NCBI GenBank assembly: GCA_951406725.2
Contig: OX597816.1
Span: forward strand, 35,092,001 to 35,156,000
DNA from: Octopus vulgaris
Lineage: Eukaryota
Direction of reading: 5' to 3'
DNA length: 64,000 bases
Below the pieces are notes generated by a model. That model was not told where the DNA came from and did not search any database. It saw nothing but the letters and a program-made list of their open reading frames with translations. A program made the translations under genes and the position numbers. Shown here in pieces: positions 3,106 to 60,241 of the stretch; the stretch's first letter is position 1, and each line of letters opens with the position of its first letter.

Positions 3106-4549
3106 TGTTATCTTCTCATATCCTTTAAAAAGATTTTGCTCAGTCAAGATAATTGAAAAAATATGAATAAAAATCGGTTTGTTTAATTAATTTTGCTACA
3201 TTACTTTATCACAAAAGCAACCAGAGTGCAATCACTTTTCAATATAAACGTGTTACATGTTTCTTTGATTGGACGTGTTTCTCCACAAATAACATTTATT
3301 CATATAAATGAATACGTAATCTATATACGTATATAAATAGGTAAATACATGCATATTTACATGCTTACATACACACGTGACTTTTTCTCCGCGATGGGGA
3401 ACAAACGTTATGCACTTTTGTAGAGAGTTCAAAAGAAACTGAAGTGGATTCTCAAAGTCCTAGCTATTACTGACACAATGAAACATTCTAGAACATTCCA
3501 AAGTTTCTGTACCTGAGGTTGTTTAGGCGAACAGATAGATATACTTGGGGATATGCATCGACGTATCAGCCAACACGCTAACTCAACCACATAAATAAAA
3601 TTACTTACACATCAGCTTTTCCGTACTGAATGGCCTGAAAACACCTATACACTTTCGACATCTCCATCCAAATGAATTGATATTAACCGGCGTTCTTTTG
3701 TATTAATATGATCATGGGTTTTCTCCCCATTACATTATATTTATACTTGTGTTATGGCCTAATTTTGTATGCCATCTTTAACTGAATTCATTAGTCAGTC
3801 GTTATTTGGTTGATTAATATTAGATAGCTTAGTCTTAGGAGAATTCGTTTATGTCGTCTAAAATATTTACATTGCAGTTTTCGCAGTATTTAATTGTTAA
3901 CGTGGTGTTCCAATGAATAAAAAAGATTTGTTATCTACTCATTGCAACACAGTGATAATTAAAAAGGAAATCTATACTTCATAGCAACTTTACCTCCTAC
4001 CAAGAAGTTTATTCGTGGAAAAACACTTCTAATCAAATGAGAAGAGAACAGATTCACGAATGGTACTTGAAAATACTGAATGTACTTAGTATGCACTTCA
4101 AGAAGTAAACACAGCTATCAAACAAAACTTAAGTGCCATATTTAACACATTTATATTGCAAAGTAATAGTACTCTGCTTGCCTTTGCGATAAAATAATTT
4201 AGCAAATTAATCAAACAAACAGATTAAATTTGTTCGTCAAAATATTTCTATCTTACGTTGGCTGCAGTGTAAAGCGGTGTAATCATTTAAAAAATACATA
4301 TAAATAATCAAACTTTTGCAATGATAATCGGCATAAATTTGCGCCAAATATAAAAATTTCAAAGTGATTTTACTAATTGTTTTTAATTTGAACAAATTTT
4401 AATTTTAATTTAAAACTCGGACGTTTTCTGAAGTCATTAATTTTTTTAAAAAGTTTTCTACTAGAAATTCCTTCAATGGAGTAATTATATAACTAATGCA
4501 ATAAAAATTCAGATACATTATATGCGTAACGTATATATATATATATATA

Positions 4550-4813
4550 ACGGGAAGGTTTACGAAAATAAAAACAAAAGACAAAGGCAGGTGGAGCACA
4601 AACAAACAAATGTATTGGTATGGCGCTCAGGAATAGAAATAGAACAAGTCTTTTACGTTTCGAGCCTAAGCTCTTCGACAGAAAGATACACAGAAAAGAA
4701 ACAAGGAGAGAAAAAAATGCGTGTAGGCGCTATTATGCATATATATATAAAGTCTTTTGTTTATTTCCGTAAACCTGCCTTCGTCTTTTGTCTATTCTCA
4801 TAAAGCTTCCCGT
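4550..4813 (-). mobile_element. Penelope-like terminal repeat with a short inverted partial copy, in (TA)n
   Basis: 4550-4720 matches 1153-1330; about 4750-4813 is an inverted copy of its end. Confidence 0.7.
4649..4686 (-). ncRNA. Minimal type I hammerhead-like motif, variant core CUGUCGA
   Basis: Minus strand reads UCUUU CUGUCGA A GAGC UUAG GCUC GAA ACGU A AAAGA. Confidence 0.65.
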
Positions 4814-10500: not shown

Positions 10501-12169
10501 AGAAATGTATAAACCCTTGCTTTTAGGGGTTTCCCCATTTCATTGCAGGATCGGAAATATTTTGCAAATTTGGAATTGTATACGTATATAACTGAAATAT
10601 GAACCTACTATACATCAGAACTTGGTTAAATATATAAGAATTTTATATAGATTATGTCTGTATGTAATTTTAAATTAAATATAGTGGAATATTCTTTTAC
10701 GAAATTTTGTTTGGAAAGGAAGGCCTGTATATTTCTTATTTTATAGATAAATTGAACTCACTCTTTCTTCTGTAGCTACAGCATTACTTTCGGCTATTTA
10801 AGTCAATTACTGGCTTGTCAATTTGTAAGTCTATTTAAGATAATGTAAAATAACAAGAAATAATAAAATGGAGAGGAATATTTTTCCATAGACTCAGCCG
10901 TTACACATTGGTTGAATTTATCTTTATATTAGTTTCCTTTTGTTATGAATATTAAATTAAAATATTAGTGAGTATGTAATTTTTTAATGATCAGCGGGAA
11001 CTCTGAATTGAATTATTTCCCCAAGTGTGTATAACAAATTTATAATGATATTTTTCTGAAGCAGATACGTGAATATTGCCTAATATTTTCCTGTTGTGTA
11101 TTTCAAATTAGGTGTCCGTAATTATCATTTCTATTCGTTTCAGAGTTTATGAAATATGAGCTAGTTATGATTATACATACTTTACGAGAACTGTTACCAC
11201 ACTTATTAAACCTTGTTAACATCACATATTGTATTCTGATTTATAATTTCACCTGCAAAGTTTATGGTAATCAATTGTGTCTGATTTGTCTGGCCGTTTT
11301 AAATTACGGGGTTGTAGTTGGTATAGACGTCTAAATGAAACGACATTGTGCATGTCCTTTATGGAACCTCTGGAGAAATGTCTTAAACGTTCCCTTTAAT
11401 TTTTTGAAAGGCAATATCAACAAACAGATCACGGGCATGGAGGACATTCCACATGGCTTATAGTATAAGACGGAAGAATTCATCATAATTATTAGTGCAG
11501 AGTTGAAGGGAACTGGAACTCCTGAAGTTACGAGGTACTGAAGAAACGTAAGTGTGGCTATCGCTAAGTAACAATAACAATTATAGGGGCAATAGAAACA
11601 CTAGAAATGGAGGTCGGTACAACTGCGATCCAGAGCCTGGAGTGTGTATATTAGTGACAGAATGCCAATTAGTATAGTTACCCTCTCTTACACGCAGACG
11701 AAGGTGTATATTTGTATAATAGCGGCACCGTCTCAGAAATGAGACTGGTATTGCAATGCAGAATACATTAGACCATTGAATATATCAAAGACCGTATTTT
11801 GTACTGATCATCACCAAACGGTACAAAACAAAGTCTAATGTATTGGGTGTTGAAGGGGGTCAAGAATACCCCAATAAAAGTTTTTAATACAAGCTTATTC
11901 CATTGATATTATCTTTTTACATACAATTTTTGAAAATCAACTTCAACAAAAATAAACATTGAAAAGGAAAAAATTCTACAGAACTTATACTCTATACAAA
12001 AGAGCTCATGATAATGATTAGTGTATTGCGTAGTTCAATGGATTGGATGATTCAAGTGCTACGAGAGACTGAAGGAAGACTCGTTTCAGAAGCACCTGCA
12101 TTTTTAAGACGAAAACTGAAGCTACAATCAAGTAACAACAGCCATACAGCCACCATAGTATCAATAGAA

Positions 12170-12241
12170 GTCTAGAGTCTGTCTACCTTATGTGAAAAGC
12201 CTCTCCGAAGAGATACAGAAGATATGCGGCCATATGACATC
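12170..12241 (+). mobile_element. Short Penelope-like element fragment
   Basis: Near-identical to 15957-16029 (CLPYVKxLSEEIQKICG). Confidence 0.75.
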
Positions 12242-15300: not shown

Positions 15301-15753
15301 ACAAAACTAATTTTTGTATCTAATCCTCAGTTAGAATTGCAAATTTTATTCATGACATTCACTTGGATATTTATAAGGACTAAACGTGACCTTACTTGGG
15401 ATGAAATTCCATGAACATTTTAGATACTTCCTAAAAATTGAAACAGACAGGCATTACTGACAATGGGAACTGTTATACATAACATATGAAGAAATTATAA
15501 AAGGTGTCAGTTTGATACATTTGACAAATTTGAATATAATATCAAGTAAAAACTACAACTATTTTCAGAAATAATTTATTTCTCTCTAAAAAAAATGTAT
15601 TTATTTTCGAGAACTTGAATTTGCTGGAGTTTGCTGAAAATCGCAATTGACTTCCGGTTTGATCACCTTTCCATCTCTCTTGAATTATGAGGGAGCAGTA
15701 ACGCATGAGCGAGCAATTTACTAGACTCAACATCGTACGCGAAGAATTTCACC

Positions 15754-16406
15754 AATTTCAATTCCCACCATCCATGCAGTGTAAAGAGAGGACTTGCTCA
15801 GTGTCTAAAGCATCGAGCAAAGAATATAAGCAGCGATCGGGATACCCACTACGAAAAACTGATCAAGCACAGTAACAATCTCTTAAGCAACATCTACCCC
15901 CAAAACATACTATCTACTCCAATTATGAACAAAGGAGAGGATGAAACCAATAGACTGTCTGGAGTCTGTCTACCTTATGTGAAAGGCCTCTCCGAAGAGA
16001 TACAGAAAATATGCGGCCATATGACATCAGGACAGTATTCAAGAGTAATACAACACTTCGCAAATGTCTCCTTCGGATAATACTACCAATAGAAGAGAAT
16101 ATGACCAAGAACTGCGTGTACTTCATTCCATGAAGCTTTGGTAGATTGTACAAAGGCGAAACATGCTGTGATACGAGGAGATATTGATAAATCGGTTATA
16201 GCTGATCATGTCTGGAAAAATGGAGACCACCTCCCGCTGGGGGATGGAGTTAAATAAAAGGCAGAGAACACCACTGGAAAATACGGAAACTAAAAGAAGC
16301 AGAACATATGCTAGGACACAACAACCTACTACGCAGACCGAGTGCAGATATGAATAGCATATGAGAACCGGTATTAAGGAAGAATAGGGAAATATTAGAG
16401 CTATAA
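15754..16406 (+). mobile_element. Penelope-like retroelement: disrupted RT C-terminus plus GIY-YIG endonuclease
   Basis: Frames give NFNSHHPCSVKRGLAQCLKHRA, CLPYVKGLSEEIQKI, NCVYFIP..GRLYKGET, KSVIADHVW and RKLKEAEHM, with stops and frameshifts. Confidence 0.85.
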
Positions 16407-19506: not shown

Positions 19507-19657
19507 ATGTTTATTCGCATATGCAGAATTATTATTTGATTAGTTTAATTTTCGTACGGCAGGGAAAGGTTTTTAGAAGTGTTTGTAAAGGTGACTTTGT
19601 ATTTGAGAGGTATACATAGGATGGGTTTTCTAAAGAGGGATATAATTCAATAATGAT

Positions 19658-21238
19658 TAAGTATGACGTTGTTAATTTTCTCTATACCCAAATGAAACCT
19701 AATTAATTTGGCTCTTGATCAAATGAAATCTATACATTCAACATTCTTTTTTCACAACTAAATTACACTGGGCTACAGAATATGTGCTTCTTTTATTTAT
19801 GATAGAGTTTGGTTTAAGCTATATTTAGATGCTCTTTCTAATTGGATGACATAACAGGCATAGGCCAGTTAGTTTACAAGTCTAGTTGTAAGTTAAAGGT
19901 TTATATATAGCATTCATGGTATCTTCTACATTAATAATACTAATTAATCTTGTTAAGTTTTTACTTTTATTATTTTTATTGTTTGTCCGCCACATGCACA
20001 AACTTAGTAATGCAAAGTATTTATTTTATTTTATTTTTATTATCCTCATAGTTGGCCCGCCCCATGCAAACTTAGAGTCAACAGCCTGTAGCATTTACCT
20101 AGTATTGCAAAGTTTTTATTTTATTTTATTTTTATTATCGTTATTGTTGGTTCGCCCAATGCACAAATTTAGAGACAACAGTCTCTATCATTTACCTAGT
20201 ATTGCCATTTTATTATAATTGTGTTCTTAATTAGATTACTTAAATGGAAAATCCTTACAAAGATTACAGAAATGATTATGGTTTCTTGACTGTAAGATTG
20301 TATTATTTACTTTTCTTATCGAGTATTAATGCATTAATATGCTCTGCAGGTTATGATAAATTTCTCTGTTATAGTGAATATATCACGCTTAATGGCACAC
20401 TGGATTTTGATGCACTAAACAACTTCGCAGGATAACAAAGAAAGAACTGCAAAATTAATGCCCAAATTAAACACTTAAATTAATGCGTAATGATATTTAT
20501 ATCAGAAGGATATGGCTCAATCTAAACCTAATTATGACGAAGTTAATCGTTGTTAAACTATTTTAACGTTAAAATTGTTAGCGTTAATGACCTAACGCTG
20601 TCATCAGTATAATATAATTTCAGTAATTTTGAGTGTGCTATAGAGATAATCGTCTACTCGTTTAATAAAATAAAATTATTATTTAGTCACCGCAATATAT
20701 TCAATTAGCGAATGATATGGAAATAAACAGCTGCCGGTATAAGTGAAGTATGAAGTCGCTGAGGTTGTTTACATTGGATTAGTTTACATTAGAAATCACA
20801 GAAATTAAAATAATCATTGAGAATTTTAAATTATGAATACTTTGCATTATTAGGTAAATGATACAGACTGCTGACTCTAAATTTTTGCATGGACGGACCA
20901 ACAATAAAGATAATGAAAATAAAAACCAAACAACATTAATTAGCATTATTAATGTAGGAGATACCTTGGATGCTAGATCACCTTTGTATATAAATCTTTA
21001 ACTTACAACTAGACTAGCAAACTAATTAGCCTACACACGTTTTGCCATCTAATTAGATAGAGCAGTTAAATATAGCTTAAACCAGACTCTATCATAAATA
21101 AAAGAAGCACATATTCTGTAGCCCAGTGTAATATTAGTTGCGAAAAAAGAAAGTTGAATGTTTAAATTTCATATGACCAAGGGTCAAATTAATTAGGTTT
21201 CATTTGGGTATAGAGAAAATTAACAATGTCATACTCAA
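19658..21238. mobile_element. Foldback-like element with about 400-550-bp inverted arms
   Basis: 19658-~20210 is the reverse complement of ~20840-21238; the left arm carries extra copies of an ~85-bp subrepeat. Confidence 0.75.
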
Positions 21239-23071
21239 TTGTTACATACAAATCTGTTTGACAATCAGCACTGATCAAACAGGCATCTCCACCAAGGCTG
21301 CTAGAGGAGGAGGGCCAAATTATTTTATTTACACATTTTGCATGATCATGCACATCTGAGAATGACTGGTATATACTATCGGTATGACTGTAGCTGGTTT
21401 TGACAGCATACGATATGCGAAGGTAAAAGCAATGGTGTGATTTTTGTGGAGATAAATCTATGAATATTTACGAAGTAATATATTATGGAAAACATTTTCC
21501 CTATGCTCAAGCGGTTCAAATGTAAGAATGCAACATCGATAAAGCTGGAGGTGGTACTGCAACCTTAAAGTATGAATGCTGCCATCAATGTATTATGTGA
21601 AACTTGAAATTAAGCCAGAACGACGTGAAAGTGTGTTTTGTCATCTGAGGGCATCGAGCCCTGTTGGTGACCTGCGGTACAACGTGTCGTTTTACAATCA
21701 TGAGAGGGCCAAAGCAAATACAATTTCATCAATATATGACATGAGAGCACGTAGCACACTCTCAATGATTGTTTCAGAACATTTTATAGACACTAGTAGA
21801 TTCAAATATTCGCTCCAGCGAATTGAATTCACACAGCTATAACTGTCATGGTTGAGATGTCAAAAGTCAAAGTATCACCGAATCTCAATAGGTTGCAATT
21901 TATTGTTTGATTACATTATATAAAAATTTTGAATCATATTATTGTCTTAAGTTGTAAGTATGCTTTCATAGAAACAAAAATTCATTTAAGAATATTTACT
22001 CTTGAAGAAAGTTATATGTCATAAAAACATACGGAATCAATATAATAACCAAATATTCAACAAATCGTAACTTTCTAATAGCATAGCATTATGTCCTTGG
22101 TTATAAACAAAAACTCATTCTGACCAGACGAACGGTCACTTTCACTTTCTCTCTCCTGCTTTAACTCATTCCATTGACATTTATCACCATACATATATCA
22201 GTAATGTCTCATACGCTATGCAAGAAGCTTAATTTCTTCACGATCTGTAAAATATTCTTGCTGTCAATGACGTTATTCGGCCCCAATAAGACACATGATG
22301 CGACTCATCCCGTACCCGCCTTATGCTTATGTTGTTGGAAACATTGGTATACGTCAACTTTGGTGCCAGAATCCGTAGCCGCAGTTCTTGTATTCCTTAA
22401 AGTCATGATGCATGTCACAAATTTGTTATCTGGCCTGTGTTGCATTGTTCTCTTAATTTCTTTACCCGTGTTTTGGTCTTGAAGACGTGGTATACTCTAC
22501 ATTTCGATACGCTGCATCTCAAATGATGAGCTACATTCTTCCATACTTTGGCGAAAACACATTCACTTGTTTACTGATTGAAGTATAGAAACAATTTCTA
22601 ATGTTTGAAAGACATCAGGATATCTTTCTTCATGCTACATACATGTTTAAATTAGACGATTAAGAATTCACTTCATTTCCTGAGGTTTATCGTCAGTACG
22701 TTCACCTTTTCTTTACGCTGGCTCATATAAAAAAACATTACGTGTGATCTACAGCGTTTTATAAGAATATATATTGTTGTTATGTTGTTGGTCATTATTG
22801 TAATTTTGTTGTTATTTTCTTGGTTCTGTTATCACTCACCATATGATTTTGAATCTTGTTTCTCCTTTCAAAATATTTACTTTTTCCTGTTTCCATTATG
22901 TAATTTATGATTGTTTATGCTTGCAGCTCTGTCTGTGTAATTAATTTTGTGTATTGTTTTCTTTTTAATCATTTGTCTTTTTGTTAGAATATAATTTGTG
23001 TACATCACAGACGTAGCTTGCAACACTTCAGTAAAGACCACTCCACCCTACTATTTCTGCTGTGCACATAC

Positions 23072-23800: not shown

Positions 23801-23809
23801 CTTACAAGG

Positions 23810-24470
23810 TGAGCAATAGTGTGCGTACGCTGCTATATGTATGTATAACAAAAAAAAATTGGAAGAAGAGCGCAAGAGACGACAATAAAATCACACGGAC
23901 TGATAGACTACACAAAGACGGACAGGAAAAGACAAGGACAGACCACCCGTGGCCCTCCATTCATCAGACAAGCCTCCAAACCATCACCACAGCCTCGGCC
24001 CGTCACACGTGAGACTCTCCAAAGTTGGCCGGCCCAAAAAATATAAGCCAAGCGCACTATATTCCTGGAACAAAGCAAGCGACCCTGCACGACAACACAC
24101 TCCAAAATAATCAAGAAAACGGAGAAACTGTCACGCAAACACAAAAACAAACAAAAACAAGACAGCAACAGGTGTATTTCGACTCACAATGACGCATCTA
24201 GTTCAGCTGGCGTGTGGACTGAAAGCCTTGAGGCATAAACATAGATGAAAGTCTAGTGACAGGAAAATAAGGTGCTGTACGGAGGATGTGTTGACGGTTT
24301 GGAGACTTGGCTGATGAATTGAGGGCCACGGTTGGTCCGTCCTTGTTTTTCCTCTCCGTCTTTGTGATGTCTGTCTGTCCGTGTGTTTTTATTGTCATCT
24401 GTTGCATTCTTGTTCCATTTATTGGATTTATATATACATATAGCGGCGTACGTACACATTTTGTGCACCT
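23810..24470. repeat. Diverged inverted repeat, arms ~23810-23996 and ~24283-24468
   Basis: For example CCGTGGCCCTCCATTCATCAG versus CTGATGAATTGAGGGCCACGG. Confidence 0.75.
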
Positions 24471-24891
24471 TCTCAGTAAGTATGTATCTAAATTCAGTAC
24501 GAGGTTTTTACTCCCTCGTTCAGACCCCCTTAAGCTTTCTTCTTTCCTGCCTGTTTTCTTTTTTTTTTTGTTCCCTCTCTCTATTTCTTGGCATTCTTTT
24601 TCTTTAATCTCTCTTTTGTTATCTCCCTTGTACCTTTCTCTTTGCCCCTTCCACACTCTCTCTATATCTCTCTAGCTTCTTCGCTGATTCTTCTAGCCCT
24701 CTGTCTCCACCTCTCTCTTTCCCTTCCGGTCTTCGGCAAATCCAGGATTGCGCTCGACACTCTGGCAAGTAAGTAACTCGAGGTGAATTAAGGACAATCT
24801 GCATTTTCTGTTCGTCTGTGTATTTAGTACATGATCATATGTTTACTTACTAGACGTATTTTAATTACACACACATACACACACGTATATA

Positions 24892-25630: not shown

Positions 25631-25877
25631 CTTCTGAATTGTCATGGTAGAACCACCCTTATATTTTACGGTTGTACCAGACATTCAGCCTTAAATGCTT
25701 TCCCATCTCTGCGACGCACGAAAGTTACACCAGATGTACTGAAAATCTGGGTAAAAATATGAAAAATAATATTAGCTTTATGTTGGGCACTTTTTGTTAT
25801 ATATATTGTGAGCAACAAACCAGTTACATTAAGTTTATATGTTGATTGAATGCATGTACTATCTTATACTTACTTTT

Positions 25878-26584
25878 ATCAGACCATATGACTTTCGACC
25901 ATTGTTTACTGGTCCAATTTGAATGATTTTTTTGGCCAACTGAAGACGTTTTTCCATATTCGCTTCAGAAACCCATGGCTTCTTCCGCGCTTTGCAGCCT
26001 TTCAGACTGTATACTACAAACCTTCTAACAGTTCAGGTTGATATTTGTGACGTACATGCCTCGTCGAAATCCGCACAGAGCTCTGACGATGTTTCTGAGC
26101 GGTTGATGGGTGATGGATCTGTCATCACGAGGTGATTTAACCTTTTTTTCTACCTGTTCTTTGTATAGCCCTTCCATCTTTTGTCTCTCTGAAGCGCTTG
26201 AGAGTCGTTTGCACCACACATCGAGAACATTTCATCTTCTGCGCAATTTGCTTTGAGACATTCCATCTTCATGATGAGCTACGATTTTATCTCACTCACA
26301 CTCACTCAACCTCCTTGTTTTTGGCATTTTACTGTTGATTAACTCTATTTACAACGTATTTTGGAATAAAACTCTGAAATAATGAAGGAAACATACGTTC
26401 ATTTTCGACGTATGTACAGTACAGTATAAAAGGGGTAATTGATGCTTAAGGAAGGTCAACCAGATATCAAAACCAATATATATTGTGAAATATGCCATAA
26501 TATACCATGTACACGAGTTTCATCAACATTGAGATAGCAGAACCCCAAAACATTGGGGTTGCCTAATACTTTTGGCCAAGGCTG
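25878..26584 (-). mobile_element. Tc1-like transposon, 5' half (decayed)
   Basis: TIR CAGCCTTGGCCAAAAGTATTAGGCAAC next to TA; translation includes ARKKPWVSEANMEKRL and WTSKQWSKVIWSD. Confidence 0.85.
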
Positions 26585-28070: not shown

Positions 28071-28463
28071 AATCATTATTCATGAACACAAATAAGTATT
28101 TTTCACAACTGGCTGTTCAGTGCATTAAGTTACTATCAATTCAATTTGTAAAAGACACTATCTTTAATAATTATGAGCCTGCAGATGGACAGGCCTTCTA
28201 AAGTTCGACACAATAAATAAATCTTTTAAGGTATATATCTTATTTCCTCCAGTGATTAGACTGTGACCATGCTGGGACAACTCCATGGATTTTTGGTCGA
28301 AAGACTTTAACCCAGTACCTATTTTTCAATTGCATGTGCTAAATGTCAGAGGGGGATAGGATAAACTACCTGCATGAACCTTTAAAAGCAGGTAGTAATG
28401 TTATTCTTACTACAAGTTTTCAAGTGTGCTGTTCGATTTAAACAGTTATTTTTCGAAGCTATA

Positions 28464-29385
28464 ATGGAAGTGACGAAGGAACATATGCATAATATCTTGC
28501 TTTATAAATTCAATAAAGGCAACAAAGCAATGGAAGGTGCGAATAATATTAATGCAGTACATGAGGATCGGACAATAAATGTAAACCAGTGTCAACGAAC
28601 GGTTCCAGAGATTCCGAGTCAGAATCTACAGTCGAGAAGACGAGCCTCATCTAGGAAAATGTGTAGAACTCAACAAGGACTTCCTGCAAAATCTTGTGGA
28701 ACAAAATTCCTGTTGACGAACTAGCAGTGAAGATTGGATTTTGTCACTAAACTATTCATCGACACTTACGTGCCATCGAAAAAGTCAACAAATTAGGTCA
28801 AAATGTTCCTCACAAATTTTCCAAGTCTAACCACGCGCAGAGTGTGAATATGTGATCTTCTTTGCTGTCACATCTCACGAAAGAACCATTTTTGAACCGA
28901 ATAGTGACTGGTGACGAGACAGGGGATCTCTATAAAAATGACAAGTGCCGAAGACAGTGGGTAGGGAAAGGAGAAACATCGGTAACGCAGACTAAATATG
29001 GTCTTCACCCACGTAAAATGTCATCTGTTTGGTGGAATATGAAAGGCTTAGTCCACTTTGAACTTTTAAACCCAAACCAAACATTGACAAAAGAGATCTT
29101 GTGCGAGCAGATTTAGCGACTTAAATCAATGCTAAAAGAGAAAAACGACCGTCTTTGGTTTAACGATGACAGGTGTTCTTCTATCAGGATAATGATCGGC
29201 CACATACAGGGGGTATGACATTCCAAAGGCTGGATCACTTTGAATGGGAAACGACGACCCACCCGCTGTATTCACTGGACATGACCCCATCTGATTACCA
29301 TTCATTCCGAAGTCTTTAAAATCATTTGTACGGAAAAATATGAATCCTGTAGATGAGGTCAGAACAGTACTGGGGGAATATATGG
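28464..29385 (+). pseudogene. Mariner (DD34D) transposase pseudogene
   Basis: Translation includes MEVTKEHMHNILLYKF, FLNRIVTGDE, HPRKM..VWWNMKG, QDNDRPH and HPLYSLDMTPSDYHSFRSL, with many frameshifts and stops. Confidence 0.92.
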
Positions 29386-38079: not shown

Positions 38080-39692
38080 TACAGGACATAAAAAAACGTA
38101 GACAGAATGAGAAAGAAAAACATAAAAACAAAAAGATAGAAAACGAACTTTTTTCCGAACGACGAAAAAAAGAACTAACAGAGAAACGAGACAGGTAACA
38201 TAAAGAACATTGCCCTTCATCAGTCGTCCCCTGTTTCATCTACTCCCCTTTCGAAAGTAAAGACAAGACGCTAGTTCATTAAAACAGTCCTTTCCGCAAA
38301 GCAAATTAAATAAAATATGGGGGCTTTGCGGAGGGTGAAAGTGTTAACAAAAACAGGACAGTGAGAACCAGACAATAAAAACAAACGGTGAGGGCTGTTA
38401 AGCCAAAACGATACCGTTCATAATTTTCAGGTGGAAGGGTCATTATGCCAATAATAATAAACTCATGCACTGGTACAATTTCACTTCTTTATTGTTAGTC
38501 AGTCGGTTAGTCATCAACCGATCGTTTGTTTAATCATCATTCGCTTAAACACTAAGTCGGATGTTTCTTTCAATGCTATTTGCGAATTCATCAATTCCAT
38601 GCCATCTCTCAAGAGACATTTCGGCCAAACAAAGACGCGTACACTAGCGAACATGGCAACAGAGAAACACGCCCGCATGCGCACAAGCACACACCCTATC
38701 GTTCCCTCCCTTCCTTTATCAGATATGTAACTCCATAAGCTATCACAAATCTTTATGGAATAACAGGCACATTCAAATATGATATGTAGTGGAGTGGGCA
38801 AGTCTGGAGTGGGCAAATCACAAAACGTAAATAACATGAAATACGTAGACAAACTTGGATATGCAAACAACGACAGAAACAACTGGAAAACACGACAAGT
38901 AAAATAAGGAACGACACATGATCAGTTATCGGCTGTCCATCTACTCCTCATTTGGGACAATTAACGGCAATATGAGGCTTCGAAATGCAGTTACCCCCAC
39001 AAACCAAAATAAAATTTGGGATTTGCGGTGGGTCAAAGATTGTAAGAAAAACAGGACAGCGGAGACATACAACAAACCAAACGAAACTAAAAATGGAGGG
39101 CCATTAGGCCAGACGAGGTAAGGAAGCGAAGGCTGAAGAATATTCTCTTTGACAAGAGAAAAGATAGAAGAGGTGACAGGTAAGAATGCGTCAGGTCTGT
39201 AAGGCAGACTGAAGGAAAAGAAATATGATCATGTCAGGAACAGAAAGATGGACGATGGTCACGCATGAGCAACGAGAGAGATTAAAGGAGAACGAGAGAG
39301 AGAGAGAGAGAGAGAGAGATTGAGACAGACAGACAGACAAATAGAAACGGTGAAGGGGAGAAAAAATTAATTAGAGAAAGGTTGAGAAGGAAAAAACCAA
39401 ACTGGGTAGAAGGGGAGAAAAAAGAATTAGAAGCAAGACAGAGAAAACGGAAGCGGGAGGTCATCCATGTTTATCTTCGTTTGGTTTGTTGTATGTCTCT
39501 ACTGTCCTGCTTTGTTATTGACTTTGAACCTCCACAAATCCCAAATTTCATTTTGATTTGCGGGAGCCGACAACTGATCAAGGGTTGTTCTTTATGTTAC
39601 TTGTCATGTTTTCCATTTGTTTCTCTCATTGTTTCCATACCCAAGTTTGTCTTCGTATTTCATGTTTTTTTACTTTTGGTGACGTTCTGTAC

Positions 39693-49239: not shown

Positions 49240-49338
49240 AAATGAATTTTCCATGTTAACGGTAAACATAGGATAATTCATTCACCCATCGAAATATATA
49301 TGCGTGTATGTGTATCTCCAAGCACATAAATGTACACA

Positions 49339-49391
<53 letters not shown>

Positions 49392-49629
49392 TTAAGGGTA
49401 GAAATTGATATTTATCCATTAAGACCAGTGGTCTAGCATATTAAAAAAGAATCCGAAGATTAAAATATTTATATATACCAATTAAGGACTGAACACGAAA
49501 AGTGGACAGTCAACATGCTAGATATAGACGTCAAATCACCTTCACCACAAAATATTATGTTCTCAGATCAAACTCAACACAAAACCATAGCAATAAACAA
49601 GTGAAAAATATACGAAATAAAATAATTAC

Positions 49630-49690
49630 CCATGTACTTAGTTTCAGCTGTTATTTTCCGCAAGGAAAACTGCAGCCATCATCAGCATGG
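49630..49690 (-). ncRNA. Type I hammerhead ribozyme (left arm)
   Basis: Minus strand reads CCAUG CUGAUGA U GGCUG...CAGCU GAA ACUAAGU A CAUGG. Confidence 0.85.
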
Positions 49691-49780
49691 TCCGTTATAA
49701 ATGTAATTTGCTGGACTAAATGCAAACACGATACCGAAATATCGCGTGCATGGAGTTCAGCCTATTACATTTATAACGGA

Positions 49781-49845
49781 CCATGCTGATGATGGCTGCA
49801 GTTTTCCTTGCGGAAAATAACAGCTGAAACTAAGTTAGTACATGG
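49781..49845 (+). ncRNA. Type I hammerhead ribozyme (right arm)
   Basis: Reads CCAUG CUGAUGA U GGCUG CA GUUUUCC UUGC GGAAAAU AA CAGCU GAA ACUAAGUUAGU A CAUGG. Confidence 0.87.
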
Positions 49846-51039
49846 GTAATTATTTTATTTCGTATATTTTTCACTTGTTTATTGCTATGGTTTTGTGTTG
49901 AGTTTGATCTGAGAACATAATCTTTTGTGGTGAAAGGCGATTTGACGTCTATATCTAGCATGTTGACTGTCCACTTTTCGTGTTCAGTCCTTAATTGGTA
50001 TATATATATATATACATATATATATGTAATACATAAAATACAGATGTCTGTGCAATCGCTTTTCACGCGAAAAGGGCTTCACCAATCGCTTCCGTAATTG
50101 TGATGCCTGAATAATTTGACCTCGGACAAATGTTAGGCTCTTCATTTGATTTTTTTTATTACAAATGAATAATTAGGCTTTATAGATATAATTCACTTCT
50201 GAATGTCAACTTCCGTTATTGACGTTGCAACGTCAAAAATCTTCTCGCTCTATTTTGATGATATTATTCTAATTCACTATTTGCATACAAATATGATAAC
50301 TTGCCGAAAGAAATATTTACGAACTTCACAAATTTAGACATTCTCTACAAATCCTTTTAGCTATTCAGTTCATATTTGTTTCATTCAGTGTTCGCAATAT
50401 TCTCCCTGAACCTCCCCGTCTAACACACACACTAGTGAGTCACACACGCATATGTGTGTTTTGTAAGTACGTTTGCATACATTTATGCACGGATGTGTAT
50501 TTGTGAGAGAGAGAGAGAGAGAGTCAAGGTTGTGTTGTCATGTATACACACATACGCAAATACTTGTGCATACATCTGTTTTGTACGTATGTGTGCGTGT
50601 GTGTGTGACTAAGAGAGAGAGAGAGAGATAGATAGATAGAGAGAGAGATGTCTAAGTGGCATTCACTCTCTCTCTCTCTGTCTCTCATATGCTTACACAA
50701 AGATGTATGCGTATTTATTTATGTATTTATGTATGACAGTACACTCCTTCACACACACACACACAAATGTCCACTTCATCTGATGCTTGATACTGTGTAT
50801 GTGAGCGTGTAGGTGTGGATGTGTGCGTGGGACGTTCCACCATCGATATTTATTTAAATTATTTTTGTGAAGATATTCACGTAATTCATTGTTTCATTTA
50901 ATTCCCATTTTAATTGTCTAAAATTTCGGAGCACAATGTTCTCACTCTGCAAGAGGAGCTGGGGTCGATGTAGATGGTCATTGTTCTACAGTGAAGTAAA
51001 GTTGTCTACAGGTAGCCAGAGTCAACGTTGCATTCTGCA

Positions 51040-51676
51040 ACTTTACTAACTCAGTCAAGTATGTTTGCAAATATATAAACAAATGTTTCGATGCTGCAAC
51101 ATACATCTTATGCAGATTTGCAGTCATCTGATAAATAAAAATGACACAGATGCACAGTAAGACAGAGGAGAATACATTTGTACCAATGAGGGTTTTGGCG
51201 CATCATCAATTTTCCCCTTCGTGAGAGGCACCCAGTCATCATTCATCTGAGTCTCCATTTAGAGAATGACCACATGGCTATCTTTACAAAACAAACAACC
51301 TTGCAACAAGCACTTTCTTCAAAAGAATTTTCCCTTACAACCATTTTTAAGTTGCGTAATGTAGATGAAAATGTAAGAAAACTCCTTTGCCCACAATTGC
51401 CCAAGTATTACAACTGCAGAACAATAAACGACACAAGAACAAATGTGGGGCTGATGCTGTTGCAAGAGTGTACAGTGCATCACCACACACAATACCAAGC
51501 AGAATGCATCTACTTACGCCTCCTTTTGCATGAAGTACGCGGTCCCAAATCATTCCAAGATTCGAGGAAGATAGATTGGTCGTTTGTGTGAAACTTATAA
51601 GGAAGCATGCTGTCAACAAGGTTTTCTTTTAGAAAATGATGAACATTGGGATATTACATTGACTGAAGCATCAGTA
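51040..51676 (+). mobile_element. Helitron Rep/helicase fragment
   Basis: Translations ERHPVIIHLSLHLEN, AECIYLRLLLHEVRGPKSFQD and CETYKEAC...LLENDEHWDITLTEA. Confidence 0.88.
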
Positions 51677-51885: not shown

Positions 51886-51930
51886 CTGATGAAGGCTGCA
51901 GGGTATATCAATCGAAACGTTGTGTTAACA
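51886..51930 (+). ncRNA. Degenerate hammerhead core
   Basis: Reads CUGAUGA A GGCUG CAGGGUAUAU CAAUC GAAAC GUUGUGUUA; stem II is partly broken and stem I is not evident. Confidence 0.5.
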
Positions 51931-52159
51931 ACAAACATGATGAGGACAAATATCTGTCTTATGTAAATATTGTAAATAATGAATATTTTGTATGTTTGTC
52001 TTTTTGTATATATTAACGATAAGTATGTAACTACGATGTTTGATCAATATGTATCCGGACTGTTGCCATATTAACGAAGCTGAAACAGGCAGAGTAAAGC
52101 CGCTTAGCAAATATTGACCATGAGTACTGTTGTGAACGAACACTATTTTCTAGCGTTGT

Positions 52160-52810
52160 AGCGCACCTCTGCTGTTTACAGAAGTGCTTAGAATGAGGGT
52201 ATGTATCACGTGATCATCACATTGACCTTGAGAAAGAAAGATGCCATGGCGATAGCTGCACAGAGGCCTACGCAGAGTTACAGAAAGAGTATGAAGAGGA
52301 GTGTATGAGCCACAGACAAGTGTGCAAATGATTCAGATGCTTCCAGCATGGTCGAAAAAATGTTGATATTCAGAAACATTCTGGGAGTCCCGCTATCAGC
52401 AGCACTGAGAAAAACATCGGAGAAGTGCGTGCAGCTGTGAGAGTGAGTCTTCAAATCATAACACGTGAGCTATCAGAGGATGTGCTAATTAGTTACGGTT
52501 CAGTTCCGTATCACTGAAGATTTGGGTATGGGGACGTGTGTTTGCTATGTTTGTGCCAAAACTGCTTTGCGCTGACCAAAAAGACACTCGAGTTCCAGTT
52601 GCACAAATTTCTCTTTATTATGTCGAGAACGATGAAAGCGTTTTGAAAAAAATTGCGTAGGCCTCTGACCAGGTATCGCCAAGATCTTGGCAAAATTTGA
52701 TACAGATCCTCTGCTCAACTTACTCTGTCATGGTCAGTGCGACGGTCACTCGATACGCACCTTCTTTCCAAGCACTGTTGTAAGCAATGGACGTGAGATA
52801 AAACGTTCAA
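52160..52810 (+). mobile_element. Mariner 5' fragment followed by an inverted copy of its own 5' end
   Basis: Plus strand: TEAYAELQKEY..CMS..QV.K*FRCF..GR and ITEDLGMGRVFAMFVPKLL. Minus strand 52655-52730: MTE*VEQRICIKFCQDLGDTWSEAYA. Confidence 0.8.
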
Positions 52811-52986
52811 ACTTAGTGCGCCTGCACAGCAGTTGTTAAGGTCATTCTGTGCCAAGCAGCTTTACTCTCCGTGCTGCAGCTTCGTTACTATCTCAACACC
52901 ACGCATGTGTGCTCTTTTTTATGGTCGTTGACCTCTACAAAAAATATTCAGGTGGAAATGTATATGAAAACTCACAATAAACGTCG

Positions 52987-54085: not shown

Positions 54086-54089
<4 letters not shown>

Positions 54090-55500
54090 GAGAGTTTACG
54101 AAAAAAACAAGAGTAAGAGAGGTGGTGTACAAAGCAAACAGATGTATTAGTATAACGCTCAGGAATAAAAAAAAGTATTTTACGTTTCGAGCCTACGCTC
54201 TTCTACAGAAAGGGACACAGAAAAAAACAAAGAGAGAAACAATTTATGTAGTGGCTAACGATCTATCATGGCGACTGCCGGACAGAAGGGTCACAAAGGA
54301 GAACGAAGAAGCAGGGGAGATAAAATAAAGATGCCTCCCCAACACGAAGGTGCGTGTGTGTATAAGGGAGTATGTATGTGCGAATGAAAGAGGGTTGGTG
54401 GTCTGGACGTGTGCGTAGGTGTAGGTGTGAAAATGTGGGGATGGGAATTAGTCAGTGCTGGTGTGTGGTTGGTGGGTTGTGATGTGATGTGTAATGTTGT
54501 ATGGTGTAGTGTGGTGTGGTGTGATGTTGTTTGGAGTTGGGTGAGGCGAGAGTGGAGAAAGCACGGGTGTGGTATGGGTCCAGCTGAGTGTTGGGGTATG
54601 GGGTAGGCAGAGGGTGGTGATAGAGGTGGGGTTTGTGGGTAGGCAGAGGGTGGTAGTAGAGGTGGGATATATGGGAGAGGGTGTAGGGGATAGGATGGGG
54701 GGATGGGAAGTATAGGGAAGGTGGAGTAGGAATGTGTATGGGTGCGTTGGGCTTATAGGGAAGGGTTGATTATGAAGGGGGAAGGGGAAGGTGGGTATGT
54801 CAGGAAAGAGAGTAAGAGAGAAGAGAGAAATATGGAAGAGAGAAAGCGAGTGAGAGAGAAGAGAGAAAGAGAGAAGAGAGAAAGAGAGTAAGAGAGAAGA
54901 GAGAAAGAGAGAAGAGAGAAAGCGAGTAAGAGAGAAGAGAGAGAGAGAAGTAGGAATGAAGAGAAGTAGGAGTGAAGATATGTAGGAGTCGGGCAAGAGA
55001 GGAGAGTTGGGTGGGAGGAAGTAGGAGGGGGGAGAGGCAGGGGGAGAAGGTTAGATGCATAGGGGAGGAGAGTTGAGCCCAAATGGCGTAAAGGAGCGAA
55101 GAGAGAATATTAATCTCTGTTCACGGCGCAAACGGGACTCACTATGGTCTCTGCAAGGACAATCTGAACACGGACGGGTGTTGTAAAGAGTGACCGGTAG
55201 ATCGGAAACGGCATGAGACCGGGGTGTTATTGCCGAGGCGGATGTCTCGGAGGTGTTCCGCGAACCGGTCAGCCAAGCGGTGTCCCGTTTGTCCGATGTA
55301 CAGAGAATGACAGAGAGAGAGAGAGCATGAGATGTAATATATGATATTGGTGGAGTGCAGGTGATGGAGTCGGTGATGCAATAGGGTCGATGCTGGGTGC
55401 CGGTGAGGAGACTGGTGTTGGAGAGGTAAGGGCAAGTGCGGCAGCGTGGGCGGGAGCAGGGGAACGAACCAGGCTGGGAGGTAGACACACACTGTGTGTG
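54086..55500 (-). mobile_element. 5'-truncated Penelope-like element (Neptune-like): zinc finger, GIY-YIG, 3' UTR and terminal repeat
   Basis: Translations FPCSRPRCRTCPY, NIIYYISCS..C..LYIGQTGHRLADRFAEH and RLRREQRLIFSLRSFTPFGLN, split by frameshifts; bounded by TA tracts. Confidence 0.92.
54176..54213 (-). ncRNA. Hammerhead-like motif, variant core CUGUAGA
   Basis: Minus strand reads UUU CUGUAGA A GAGC GUAG GCUC GAA ACGU A AAA; stem I is reduced to 3 bp. Confidence 0.55.
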
Positions 55501-55530
55501 AGCATGTATGTATATATATACGTATATGTG

Positions 55531-55563
<33 letters not shown>

Positions 55564-55566
55564 CAA

Positions 55567-55801
55567 AATGGTCCCTTTGCATACTGAATACTTGGTGAAA
55601 TTGATTAATTAATTAATTTTACCCTCAATTGTTGAAATTATAATTCATCTCTCTCTATTTAATGCTTCGGATTTTACCGAAAAAGCATAGTGTTTACTGA
55701 TTTTAACCCACGCTGGTGGAAAGGGGAGAGCAGAAATTCTTCGCTTGCATATTTTGGGTTTGCTGGCACTGTTAGTTTCGAGCAGATCTTCAGAAGCGAT
55801 A
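55567..55801. repeat. Partial copy of the 556-bp unit, between TA tracts
   Basis: Essentially identical to the reverse complement of ~56390-56625. Confidence 0.92.
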
Positions 55802-56095: not shown

Positions 56096-57242
56096 AAAGG
56101 GCTTAGTAAAATAAATTACTTTGCCACATACTGAACTCATTAGAAATAGTACCCAAAAAAAAACTTTTTTTAAACTATTTCTAATACTTAAAGAAAATCT
56201 CTCTCATATAGTGTTTGCTCAATTCAACTCACGAAAGTATGGGGGTAAAGACATTAAAAAATCAAATGCAAAGGTTATTTGAGAACGTACGTTTCTAGAT
56301 TAGTCAACTCGACATTTCTATCATCAGCTTAGAACTCCTTGGTTTGGATTTGAAAACACTGAAAGTGGGAGCATACCCTTTCGGCTTCTTATCGCTTCTG
56401 AAGATCTGCTCGAAACTAACAGTGCCAGCAAACCCAAAATATGCAAGCGAAGAATTTCTGCTCTCCCCTTTCCACCAGCGTGGGTTAAAATCAGTAAACA
56501 CTATGCTTTTTCGGTAAAATCCGAAGCATTAAATAGAGAGAGATGAATTATAATTTCAACAATTGAGGGTAAAATTAATTAATTAATCAATTTCACCAAG
56601 TATTCAGTATGCAAAGGGACCATTTAAGGCGAATTCTTGGTGAAATTGATTAATTAATTAATTTTACCCTCAATTGTTGAAATTATAATTCATCTCTCTC
56701 TATTTAATGCTTCGGATTTTACCGAAAAAGCATAGTGTTTACTGATTTTAACCCACGCTGGTGGAAAGGGGAGAGCAGAAATTCTTCGCTTGCATATTTT
56801 GGGTTTGCTGGCACTGTTAGTTTCGAGCAGATCTTCAGAAGCGATAAGAAGCCGAAAGGGTATGCTCCCACTTTCAGTGTTTTCAAATCCAAACCAAGGA
56901 GTTCTGAGCTGTGATAGAAATGTCGAGTTGACTAATCTAGAAACGTACGTTCTCAAATAACCTTTGCATTTGATTTTTTAATGTCTTTACCCCCATACTT
57001 TCGTGAGTTGAATTGAGCAAACACTATATGAGAGAGATTTTCTTTAAGTATTAGAAATAGTTTTAAAAAGGTTTTTTTGGCTACTATTTCTAATGAGTTC
57101 AGTATGTGGCAAAGTAATTTATTTTACTAAGCCCTTTTATATAATGTAATAATTTGAATTCGCCTTAAATGGTCCCTTTGCTTACTGAATACTTGGTGAA
57201 ATTGATTAATTAATTAATTTTACCCTCAATTGTTGAAATTAT
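56088..57242. repeat. Inverted plus partial tandem copies of a 556-bp unit
   Basis: Arms 56088-56600 and 56636-57145 are reverse complements with a 35-bp spacer; CTTGGTGAAATTGATT recurs at 56636 and 57192. Confidence 0.95.
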
Positions 57243-57855
57243 ATATATATATATATATCGTCACTGAAGTATTTCATATGTGATACTTACTTGTAACATG
57301 GAACTACTGGTGATATGGAAGCCAGCACAACCGCTTGTTTGGTCGAATTCAGTGACCAAACCACCACAACCCAGGCTTACCTGCGAGGATGTTTGGTGGG
57401 GACCCAGAAGGACTAATACAAAGGCCTATAAAAAATATCATTGAACCTACTGTAGGTTCTACGTCTCGCTAGCAATAACACGGGGCCCCAGAAAATAACG
57501 TTTGGTGTCCGTTGGGCTGGAGGGCCACTGGTTGTAGGGTGTACTTCAGCGTTGGTTAAAGAATATAGCTTGTAAAGACCACTCTTTTCTCGAAGACGTC
57601 TGTAGATTGGAGAGGTTGTCTCAGGTGCTATGCAAGTCTTTTTAGGCCCAACATTTTGGATTGCACAATCGCTGGCAAAGCGACTTTACGATGCCCAGTT
57701 GAGTAGGGGAGCATCGTAATAAACACAGAAGCAGCTGAGGGTAATGTGGGTGAATCCGATAAAGGGTAAAGCAACCTCATGCTCGGGCATTACGGTATTT
57801 CGCACACGCTATATTCACACACGTATATGTGTACACATATGCGAAAGTGAATGTT

Positions 57856-57889
<34 letters not shown>

Positions 57890-57892
<3 letters not shown>

Positions 57893-58232
57893 GATCCTGG
57901 AAGGAATTGTGCATGGTGCCAAAGATCCCAGCAATGCCATCACGCTTCAGGACCAGTTACTGCAACAGCCTGGGCCCACGGCTTTTTAATATTCTCCCAA
58001 AGAGTCTGAGGAACTTGCACAAAGTAGATGTAGGGGTTTTTAAATCAAAGCTGGACCTCTTCCTATCGGGAGTCCCAGATGAGCCTACCTCACGGCAAGA
58101 GGTGCAAATGAGGGTAGCTATATCAAACTCCATTCTTCTTCAAGTGCCACATACTAGAGCATGCTCCTAGTAATAACAGTGTAGCGCAAAACGGCGGTGC
58201 ATCAGCATGGCCGCAGCTCTGAGCTGAAACTT

Positions 58233-59793: not shown

Positions 59794-60241
59794 CCGAATT
59801 TGTGTGAATGTGTATAGAATAATATATCAGTTGAATAAAGTTAAAACATGGTCTGGTTTCACGTTTTATTTTATTATTGTATTATTATTTTACAATGTTG
59901 AAGTGTATATTAAACATTGGATATATATTTTGTGATGCTCATAAAGTTCAATCAGCGCTCTGACATGTTCGTAGTGATCATTAGGTTTCAAAATATATTT
60001 AACTGACAGATTATTTATCAAGAACTCAACAGTTGGTTAAATGCATTCCAAAATCTAATGATTACTTCGAACGTATGAACGCGCTAATTGAATTTTATGA
60101 ACATTACAAAATATATTTTAATTCTGTAAAAATCTTTTTTTTAAATGCACTAATATAAAAACCTGAAAACCAGACAGATCATGTTTTAACCTTATTCAAC
60201 TAATATATGTGTATGTGATTGTGTATATGTATGTGTGCGTA

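Follow-up and report, generated by a model that had tools for sequence, protein, structure and literature searches.

What arrangement of DNA places one hammerhead-ribozyme (HHR) motif on each strand of the same short locus, how did it arise, and what would RNA copied from it do? These questions are raised by a palindrome of ~520 bases in a 64-kb stretch of Octopus vulgaris DNA, which was analyzed as a whole and is called the window below. With a probability of about 0.78, we read this locus as the inert remnant of one heavily 5'-truncated Penelope-like element (PLE) insertion into (TA)n, with head-to-head arms of ~235 bp that carry hammerhead motifs.

Architecture of the palindrome

The two inverted arms, 231 bp on the left and 236 bp on the right (Table 1), are identical in 229 of 236 alignment columns, and the remaining columns are 2 mismatches and 5 gap columns. 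By event, the arms differ in substitutions at 49538 and 49553, a 1-nt indel at 49541 and a 4-nt indel at 49636, while the 72 bp nearest to the spacer match perfectly. An earlier note on this DNA had described ~240-bp near-identical inverted arms around a 56-bp spacer that is itself an imperfect hairpin, and both descriptions hold: the spacer fold was better than all of 200 shuffles on both strands, as RNA (z-scores of −5.7 and −4.7 for the two strands) and as DNA (−3.3 and −3.4). The note had also placed a 4-nt indel in stem III of the hammerhead as the difference between the arms; its position is correct, but it is accompanied by the 1-nt indel and the two substitutions. Three of the four arm differences fall within 16 bp (49538–49553) beside a short direct repeat, and they possibly represent one complex mutation.

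Outside the aligned region, the arms continue into a common TATATATA, which reaches ~49470 on the left and ~50006 on the right. The flanks beyond it are unrelated, and the symmetry ends with the element. At its right end the element passes into a (TA)n-rich tract, and at its left end into ~80 bp of unique sequence followed by a long (TA)n. A target-site duplication is unreadable because the insertion lies inside (TA)n. Neither the arm nor the 80-bp left extension has a further copy within the 64-kb window.

Near-identical inverted arms beside microsatellites might also result from a fold-back artefact of the assembly or the library, and inverted PLE structures are known to trouble assemblies (PMC8557442, available sections). 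We regard this explanation as very improbable, since there are four differences between the arms, the symmetry goes no further than the element ends, two more such structures of different ages lie nearby and the geometry is biologically documented. In addition, the DNA of the window, which is AT-rich (GC mostly 27–45%) and rich in microsatellites, contains no N.

Table 1 Features of the palindrome and its flanks, in window positions.
Position	Strand	Feature	Basis or remark
49342..49388	.	microsatellite of (TA)n on the element's left side	repeat scan
49389..49469	-	~80 bp between the left arm and the long (TA)n; PLE 'tail' or host sequence	flank comparison
49477..49707	-	left arm; 5'-truncated pLTR-like copy, 3' end leftward	alignment; orientation from HHR
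49630..49690	-	type I HHR with the short form of stem III (3+1+3 palindrome of 7 nt); cut predicted at 49635/49634 after GUA	motif
49696..49701	+	TATAAA directed into the spacer, contributed by the left arm's antisense strand; may be chance	mirror copy 49775-49770 on the minus strand
49708..49763	.	spacer of unique sequence that folds as an imperfect hairpin on either strand; likely site of fold-back or joining	folding; role proposed
49764..49999	+	right arm; 5'-truncated pLTR-like copy, 3' end rightward	alignment
49781..49845	+	type I HHR with the long form of stem III (5+1+5 palindrome of 11 nt); cut predicted at 49840/49841 after GUA	motif
49836..49839	+	4 bases unique to the right arm, within a short AGT direct repeat	sequence, alignment
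50000..50027	.	(TA)n-rich tract adjoining the right end; likely insertion target	sequence

Hammerhead motifs

Each arm contains a complete hammerhead core (CUGANGA, GAAA and NUH together with helices I–III), and the two are divergent as the earlier note had stated. The cores, at 49786 (+) and 49685 (−), face outward and are ~100 bp apart. Both motifs are of type I and possess a helix I of 5 bp, CUGAUGA, an extra U after A9, GAAA and a GUA cut triplet. Helix II of both HHRs consists of 5 bp, an internal loop and a further 6–7 bp, with pair probabilities >0.9. The pair 10.1–11.1 is a G-U wobble in both HHRs, where a G-C that is highly conserved, albeit not invariant, would be expected. Hence the term 'intact', which had been applied to the two hammerheads, is appropriate for the core letters but not for G10.1-U11.1 or for stem III, which is weak.

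The two stem III variants are each palindromic around a single central base. As the 4-nt indel preserves this symmetry, the symmetry that permits dimers is retained. Loss of the 4 bases from the left arm by slippage appears to be the simpler reading of the indel, because these bases sit within the AGT direct repeat. Calculated stem III duplex energies were −1.6 kcal/mol for two short variants, −8.6 kcal/mol for two long ones and −2.4 kcal/mol for the mixed duplex, and in the folded monomer the stem III pair probability was only ~0.02 (long) or 0.002 (short). Cleavage of either HHR as a monomer is doubtful, and even in unmasked RNA cleavage would likely be weak and dimer-dependent. Dimer cleavage has reportedly been described by Lunse et al. 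2017. We found no measurement of the effect of G10.1-U11.1 on an HHR in the literature checked, and PMC6431247, PMC2837043 and PMC544870 contributed no decisive information. The available text of PMC4209133 reports no cleavage by a single minimal HHR motif and low cleavage by dimers, and a lizard PLE hammerhead is described as cleaving only with the element's protein present (PMC11167929, available text).

A descriptor with strict structural requirements (at least 5 bp in each of helices I and II; thresholds fixed after the motif had been seen) recovered the motifs and had two matches in the window, namely the HHRs of both arms, versus none in 300 dinucleotide shuffles. A relaxed descriptor gave three matches, compared with a shuffle mean of 0.11. 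Rfam had no match at the gathering score in the whole window and left both HHRs undetected; at E values up to 10, the 18 matches within 49300–50200 included no hammerhead family and were hairpin or TA-repeat noise.

In the sections of PMC4209133 that were available, the hammerheads of PLEs are characterized by families of copies, a base between positions 9 and 10.1, a conserved G10.1-C11.1 and a palindromic stem or loop III, and the minimal HHRs (min-HHRs) of PLEs by a helix I of 4–5 bp and a helix II longer than canonical. The HHRs found here agree with this description in their helix I of 5 bp, the unpaired U between A9 and 10.1, the long helix II and the palindromic stem III, but deviate in G10.1-C11.1, which is G-U in both arms. 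The same source describes dual min-HHRs on opposite strands ~100–700 bp apart and relates dispersed motifs to truncated PLEs. The dual min-HHRs of Schistosoma mansoni (PMC4209133, available sections) share with our locus the location on opposite strands, a spacing within this range, the short helix I, the long helix II, the base after A9 and the palindromic stem III, whereas G10.1-U11.1, the stem III lengths of 7 and 11 nt and the internal loop in helix II are particular to the octopus motifs.

Two further observations concern the motifs and their surroundings. A donor-like site lies 5 nt past the predicted cut and an acceptor-like site near the arm end (49846–49987 (+), mirrored in the left arm); the 142-nt U-rich stretch between them could, in a post hoc reading, be a PLE intron. 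A decayed minimal hammerhead occurs at 51886–51925 (+), immediately after an (AAT)n(GAT)n tract, and has the start of its core and helix II in common with the HHR of the palindrome. Since its two ribozymes are alike except for the natural difference in the length of stem III, the locus offers a ready pair for tests of monomer versus dimer cleavage.

Relation to Penelope-like elements

Inverted 5'-truncated copies and (TA)n targeting have been described for PLEs (PMC8557442), and such copies, like one-sided tails, are routine in these elements according to the available parts of PMC8557442 and PMC8969392. Head-to-head inverted pseudo-LTRs (pLTRs) of ~180–220 bp with palindromes at the junction have been read as products of self-priming on an antisense strand (PMC3846280, in part). 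The palindrome shares with the inverted pLTR pairs of endonuclease-containing PLEs (PMC3846280, PMC8557442; available text) head-to-head arms of ~200 bp, outward 3' ends, a junction palindrome, an AT-rich or (TA)n target and a possible one-sided tail. It differs from them in that no ORF or direct pLTR lies between its arms. Moreover, its junction is an imperfect hairpin of 56 nt, whereas the rotifer examples have palindromes of 18 and 38 bp, and its possible tail measures 80 bp, versus 30–40 bp in the published pairs, and could here be host DNA.

The earlier note had interpreted the locus as an inverted terminal copy of Penelope type. The HHR anatomy, the geometry, the (TA)n flank and the published descriptions agree with this interpretation, but no RT or endonuclease ORF is attached: at the locus, a search for an ORF encoding RT and a GIY-YIG endonuclease, as in an autonomous PLE, was negative. 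A 98-codon frame (49493–49789) had only sub-cutoff Pfam matches and was treated as spurious. With no such ORF attached and no further copy of the arm in the 64 kb, assignment to the family is based on motif and architecture.

Coding remnants of a PLE were found elsewhere in the window. Between this palindrome and a second one with HHRs (see below), a frameshifted fragment on the minus strand (~55145–55505) combines a CxxxxCxxC motif with a GIY-YIG-like stretch. A cysteine motif upstream of GIY-YIG marks the Neptune, Nematis and Naiad elements (PMC8557442, available sections). The fragment itself was undetected by Pfam, and a word-index protein search with the GIY-YIG piece yielded 0 of 7 candidates; a full protein scan, however, retrieved 861 relatives of a 70-aa piece at E values up to 0.001. 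Among 11 of these that were scanned for domains, 8 contained GIY-YIG, 5 RVT_1 and 4 both. A copy of a repeat with a variant hammerhead core, at 54094, lies downstream of the fragment on the same strand. Taken together, the RT and GIY-YIG relatives of the fragment and the HHR copies at (TA)n indicate that this genome contains PLEs that carry hammerheads and target (TA)n, while the family of the palindrome itself is not tied to an ORF.

The fragment appears to be part of a 5'-truncated PLE remnant (54086–55507, −) with a long pyrimidine-rich 3' region, a variant hammerhead at 54208 and (TA)n at both ends. The repeat family to which the variant belongs (1155–1300, 4550–4813 and 54094–54236) has a core of CUG-UU/UC/UA-GA, not CUGANGA, and 3' ends at (TA)n; its member at 4550–4813 is an older, lopsided head-to-head pair with 79% identity. 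Older inverted pairs (72–86% identity) with no convincing hammerhead are located at 19656–21239, 23806–24471, 38818–39682, 52061–52898, 59823–60207 and 3172–4225, and may be MITEs or decayed foldbacks. Transposase remnants of Tc1/mariner type occur at 28386–29113 and 25862–26032 (Pfam HTH_48, Transposase_1 and HTH_Tnp_Tc3_2). Other segments, for which Pfam gave no support, presumably resemble a PLE C-terminal region (15709–16080 and 12162–12241), a Helitron (51190–51591) and a LINE end (57763–58170).

With its long near-perfect arms, short spacer and TA at both ends, the palindrome could also be taken for a MITE or foldback, that is, a non-autonomous DNA transposon with long inverted repeats and a TA target that carries a PLE-derived hammerhead by chance, and the Tc1/mariner remnants show that DNA transposons have left traces in the window. 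Nevertheless, such an origin is improbable. Only one copy exists in the 64 kb, the architecture is the one documented for PLEs, and retrotransposition fits the asymmetry of the nearby HHR palindrome, which has a tail and a fragment that was inserted separately.

With respect to the age of the PLE insertion, the earlier note had proposed that it was recent. This is plausible from the arm identity of 97%, compared with 72–86% in most other local inverted pairs, but conversion between the arms could mimic youth.

A second palindrome and the mechanism of inversion

The second HHR palindrome (56096–57243) is unrelated to the first, lies ~6 kb from it and likewise has an arm identity of 97%. Its HHRs at 56327 (−) and 56908 (+) face outward, and each has its own defect, namely a stem I mismatch in the left and a missing core base in the right motif. 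The element has (TA)n at both ends and a ~100-bp tail on the right arm only. Because this tail repeats a sequence 556 bp upstream, the unit looks non-autonomous and retrozyme-like. Comparison of the junction with a third copy revealed that the spacer is ordinary element sequence in the direction of the left arm and that its junction with the right arm falls at a 5-of-6 microhomology; this spacer is not a hairpin. Alignment of the arm of the first palindrome with the 56–57 kb element yielded no significant likeness (29 of 200 shuffles were as good, for the whole unit), and the 80-bp left extension showed a weak likeness to the tail of that element, which was borderline in a post hoc test where 49 of 2000 shuffles did equally well. 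At 55566–55801, an internal fragment of 233–236 bp of the 56–57 kb element, 100% identical to it, ends 3' at an internal site and is bordered on both sides by (TA)n and then the same 7–8 bases, which look like a target duplication. Counted by hand over both palindromes, 3 of ~10 arm differences lie inside HHRs versus ~1.7 expected by length, and we considered an enrichment unpersuasive.

For the first palindrome, PLE biology suggests the following course of events. An RT/GIY-YIG protein encoded elsewhere would have nicked AT-rich DNA and started reverse transcription close to the RNA's 3' end. Copying would have halted after ~290 nt, just upstream of the HHR, and the 3' end of the cDNA would then have folded back at the imperfect 56-nt hairpin that belongs to the element itself and primed a copy of the cDNA, giving two arms with outward 3' ends. 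The observed 4-nt slip in stem III and the cluster of three small changes would have arisen during or after insertion.

A less probable alternative to this fold-back is twin priming, in which both target strands are nicked and two cDNAs, made on two PLE RNAs, are joined at their 3' ends via the partial self-complementarity of the spacer. In vitro, both strands are cut and extended by a purified PLE protein, which begins RT at two adjacent sites (PMC11167929, available text). Two templates could also account for the arm differences of the palindrome and agree with the separate HHR defects in the arms of the 56–57 kb element. Furthermore, the tail of the latter is on the arm that is not continuous with the spacer. 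Under fold-back this arm would be the copy, so that simple fold-back leaves the tail position unexplained, and twin priming explains it better. The 80-bp left extension of the first palindrome, if it is a tail, may pose the same problem. On the other hand, the spacer of the first palindrome forms a strong hairpin along its whole length, which is a natural fold-back primer, and its two arms have the same terminal base position and the same unusual G-U pair. For this locus we put fold-back at slightly better than even odds and consider the joining, at the hairpin, of two cDNAs primed independently as the weaker candidate. On the mechanism of inversion, the 56096–57243 palindrome is the more informative of the two.

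Predicted folding of RNA from the locus

Folding of the full palindrome gave −435 (+) and −438 (−) kcal/mol, and forcing the HHR fold within it carried a penalty of 87 and 89 kcal/mol, respectively. The antisense arm is always transcribed before the HHR because the arms are head-to-head. In nascent read-through RNA at the moment of HHR completion, the probability of stem I was 5e-56 and 2e-57, compared with 0.49 and 0.37 in transcripts starting in the spacer. On the plus strand, the switch was sharp: a start at 49690 gave 0.59 and a start at 49685 gave 2e-7. All of these energies and probabilities are from equilibrium models. They predict that any transcript crossing the locus would form a rod of ~235 bp in which the ribozyme cannot form, and that the HHR would be free only in transcripts starting between ~49690 and the HHR. 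The suggestion that a double-stranded RNA (dsRNA) hairpin could mask the ribozyme is thereby supported, and in a stronger form than originally claimed, as the antisense arm always comes first.

The dependence of predicted folding on the start position might suggest a selected host element, either a gene for a hairpin RNA or a switch whose outcome, ribozyme cleavage or dsRNA, is set by the start site, and the inversion does place a TATAAA ~85–90 bp upstream of each HHR. We consider this very unlikely. Switch-like folding is expected of any head-to-head duplication, TATAAA occurs here once per 960 bp per strand (corresponding to a chance rate of ~4% in any 40-bp stretch of the window), and no host exon was detected among the ORFs scanned. 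The latter comprised 12 chosen ORFs and 150 of the 232 complexity-filtered ORFs of at least 55 aa, which gave only Tc1/mariner pieces and sub-cutoff noise; short exons would escape such a scan. A self-contained unit is a similarly far-fetched idea: a TATA box donated by each arm would start transcription in the spacer, where alone the facing hammerhead can fold, both strands could give self-cleaving RNA, read-through RNA would be a silencing hairpin, and the unit would move with PLE protein supplied in trans. The idea depends on a single TATAAA with the chance rate given above. If it were true, palindromes whose arms supply each other's promoter would offer a genomic origin for RNAs that carry ribozymes in both polarities.

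Comparison with other ribozyme-bearing and inverted elements

Like the non-LTR retrozymes of metazoans (PMC7761336; bioRxiv 10.64898/2026.07.22.740005; available text), the locus is a short non-coding unit with type I HHRs and a relation to PLEs. Retrozymes, however, form head-to-tail arrays with HHRs on one strand, from which monomers are released, whereas the present locus is head-to-head with one HHR per strand. A non-LTR retrozyme was rejected for this locus, which has no head-to-tail tandem units. Viroid-like RNAs carry hammerheads in both polarities and adopt a rod-like fold. The palindrome resembles them in the ribozyme motif on each strand and the rod-like fold, but it is genomic DNA, its arms copy each other, it has no tandem unit that could give a circle, and its HHR is preceded, and thereby blocked, by the antisense arm. 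A viroid-like RNA was rejected as well, given one HHR per strand, no tandem unit and an HHR fold that is predicted to be blocked in read-through RNA.

Rearranged Penelope copies in Drosophila (PMC3681739, available sections) also contain inverted PLE sequence; transcripts and small RNAs have been shown there, whereas dsRNA from the octopus locus is predicted. The Drosophila siRNAs match the inverted regions of the rearranged copies (PMC3681739). If the octopus locus is transcribed, its hairpin could, as the earlier note had suggested, be a substrate for ADAR or Dicer.

Significance

The palindrome is likely a further instance, and a clean specimen, of an already published type of PLE insertion. 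Its family, or the movement of such palindromes as units, was not described in the literature searched; repeat databases and the supplements of PMC4209133, which were outside this search, may hold the family. Should the locus be transcribed, it would function as a source of dsRNA and not as a ribozyme. Together with the 56–57 kb element, it suggests that a census of minimal palindromes could decide between cDNA fold-back and twin priming as the origin of PLE inversions, a choice left open by the literature consulted.
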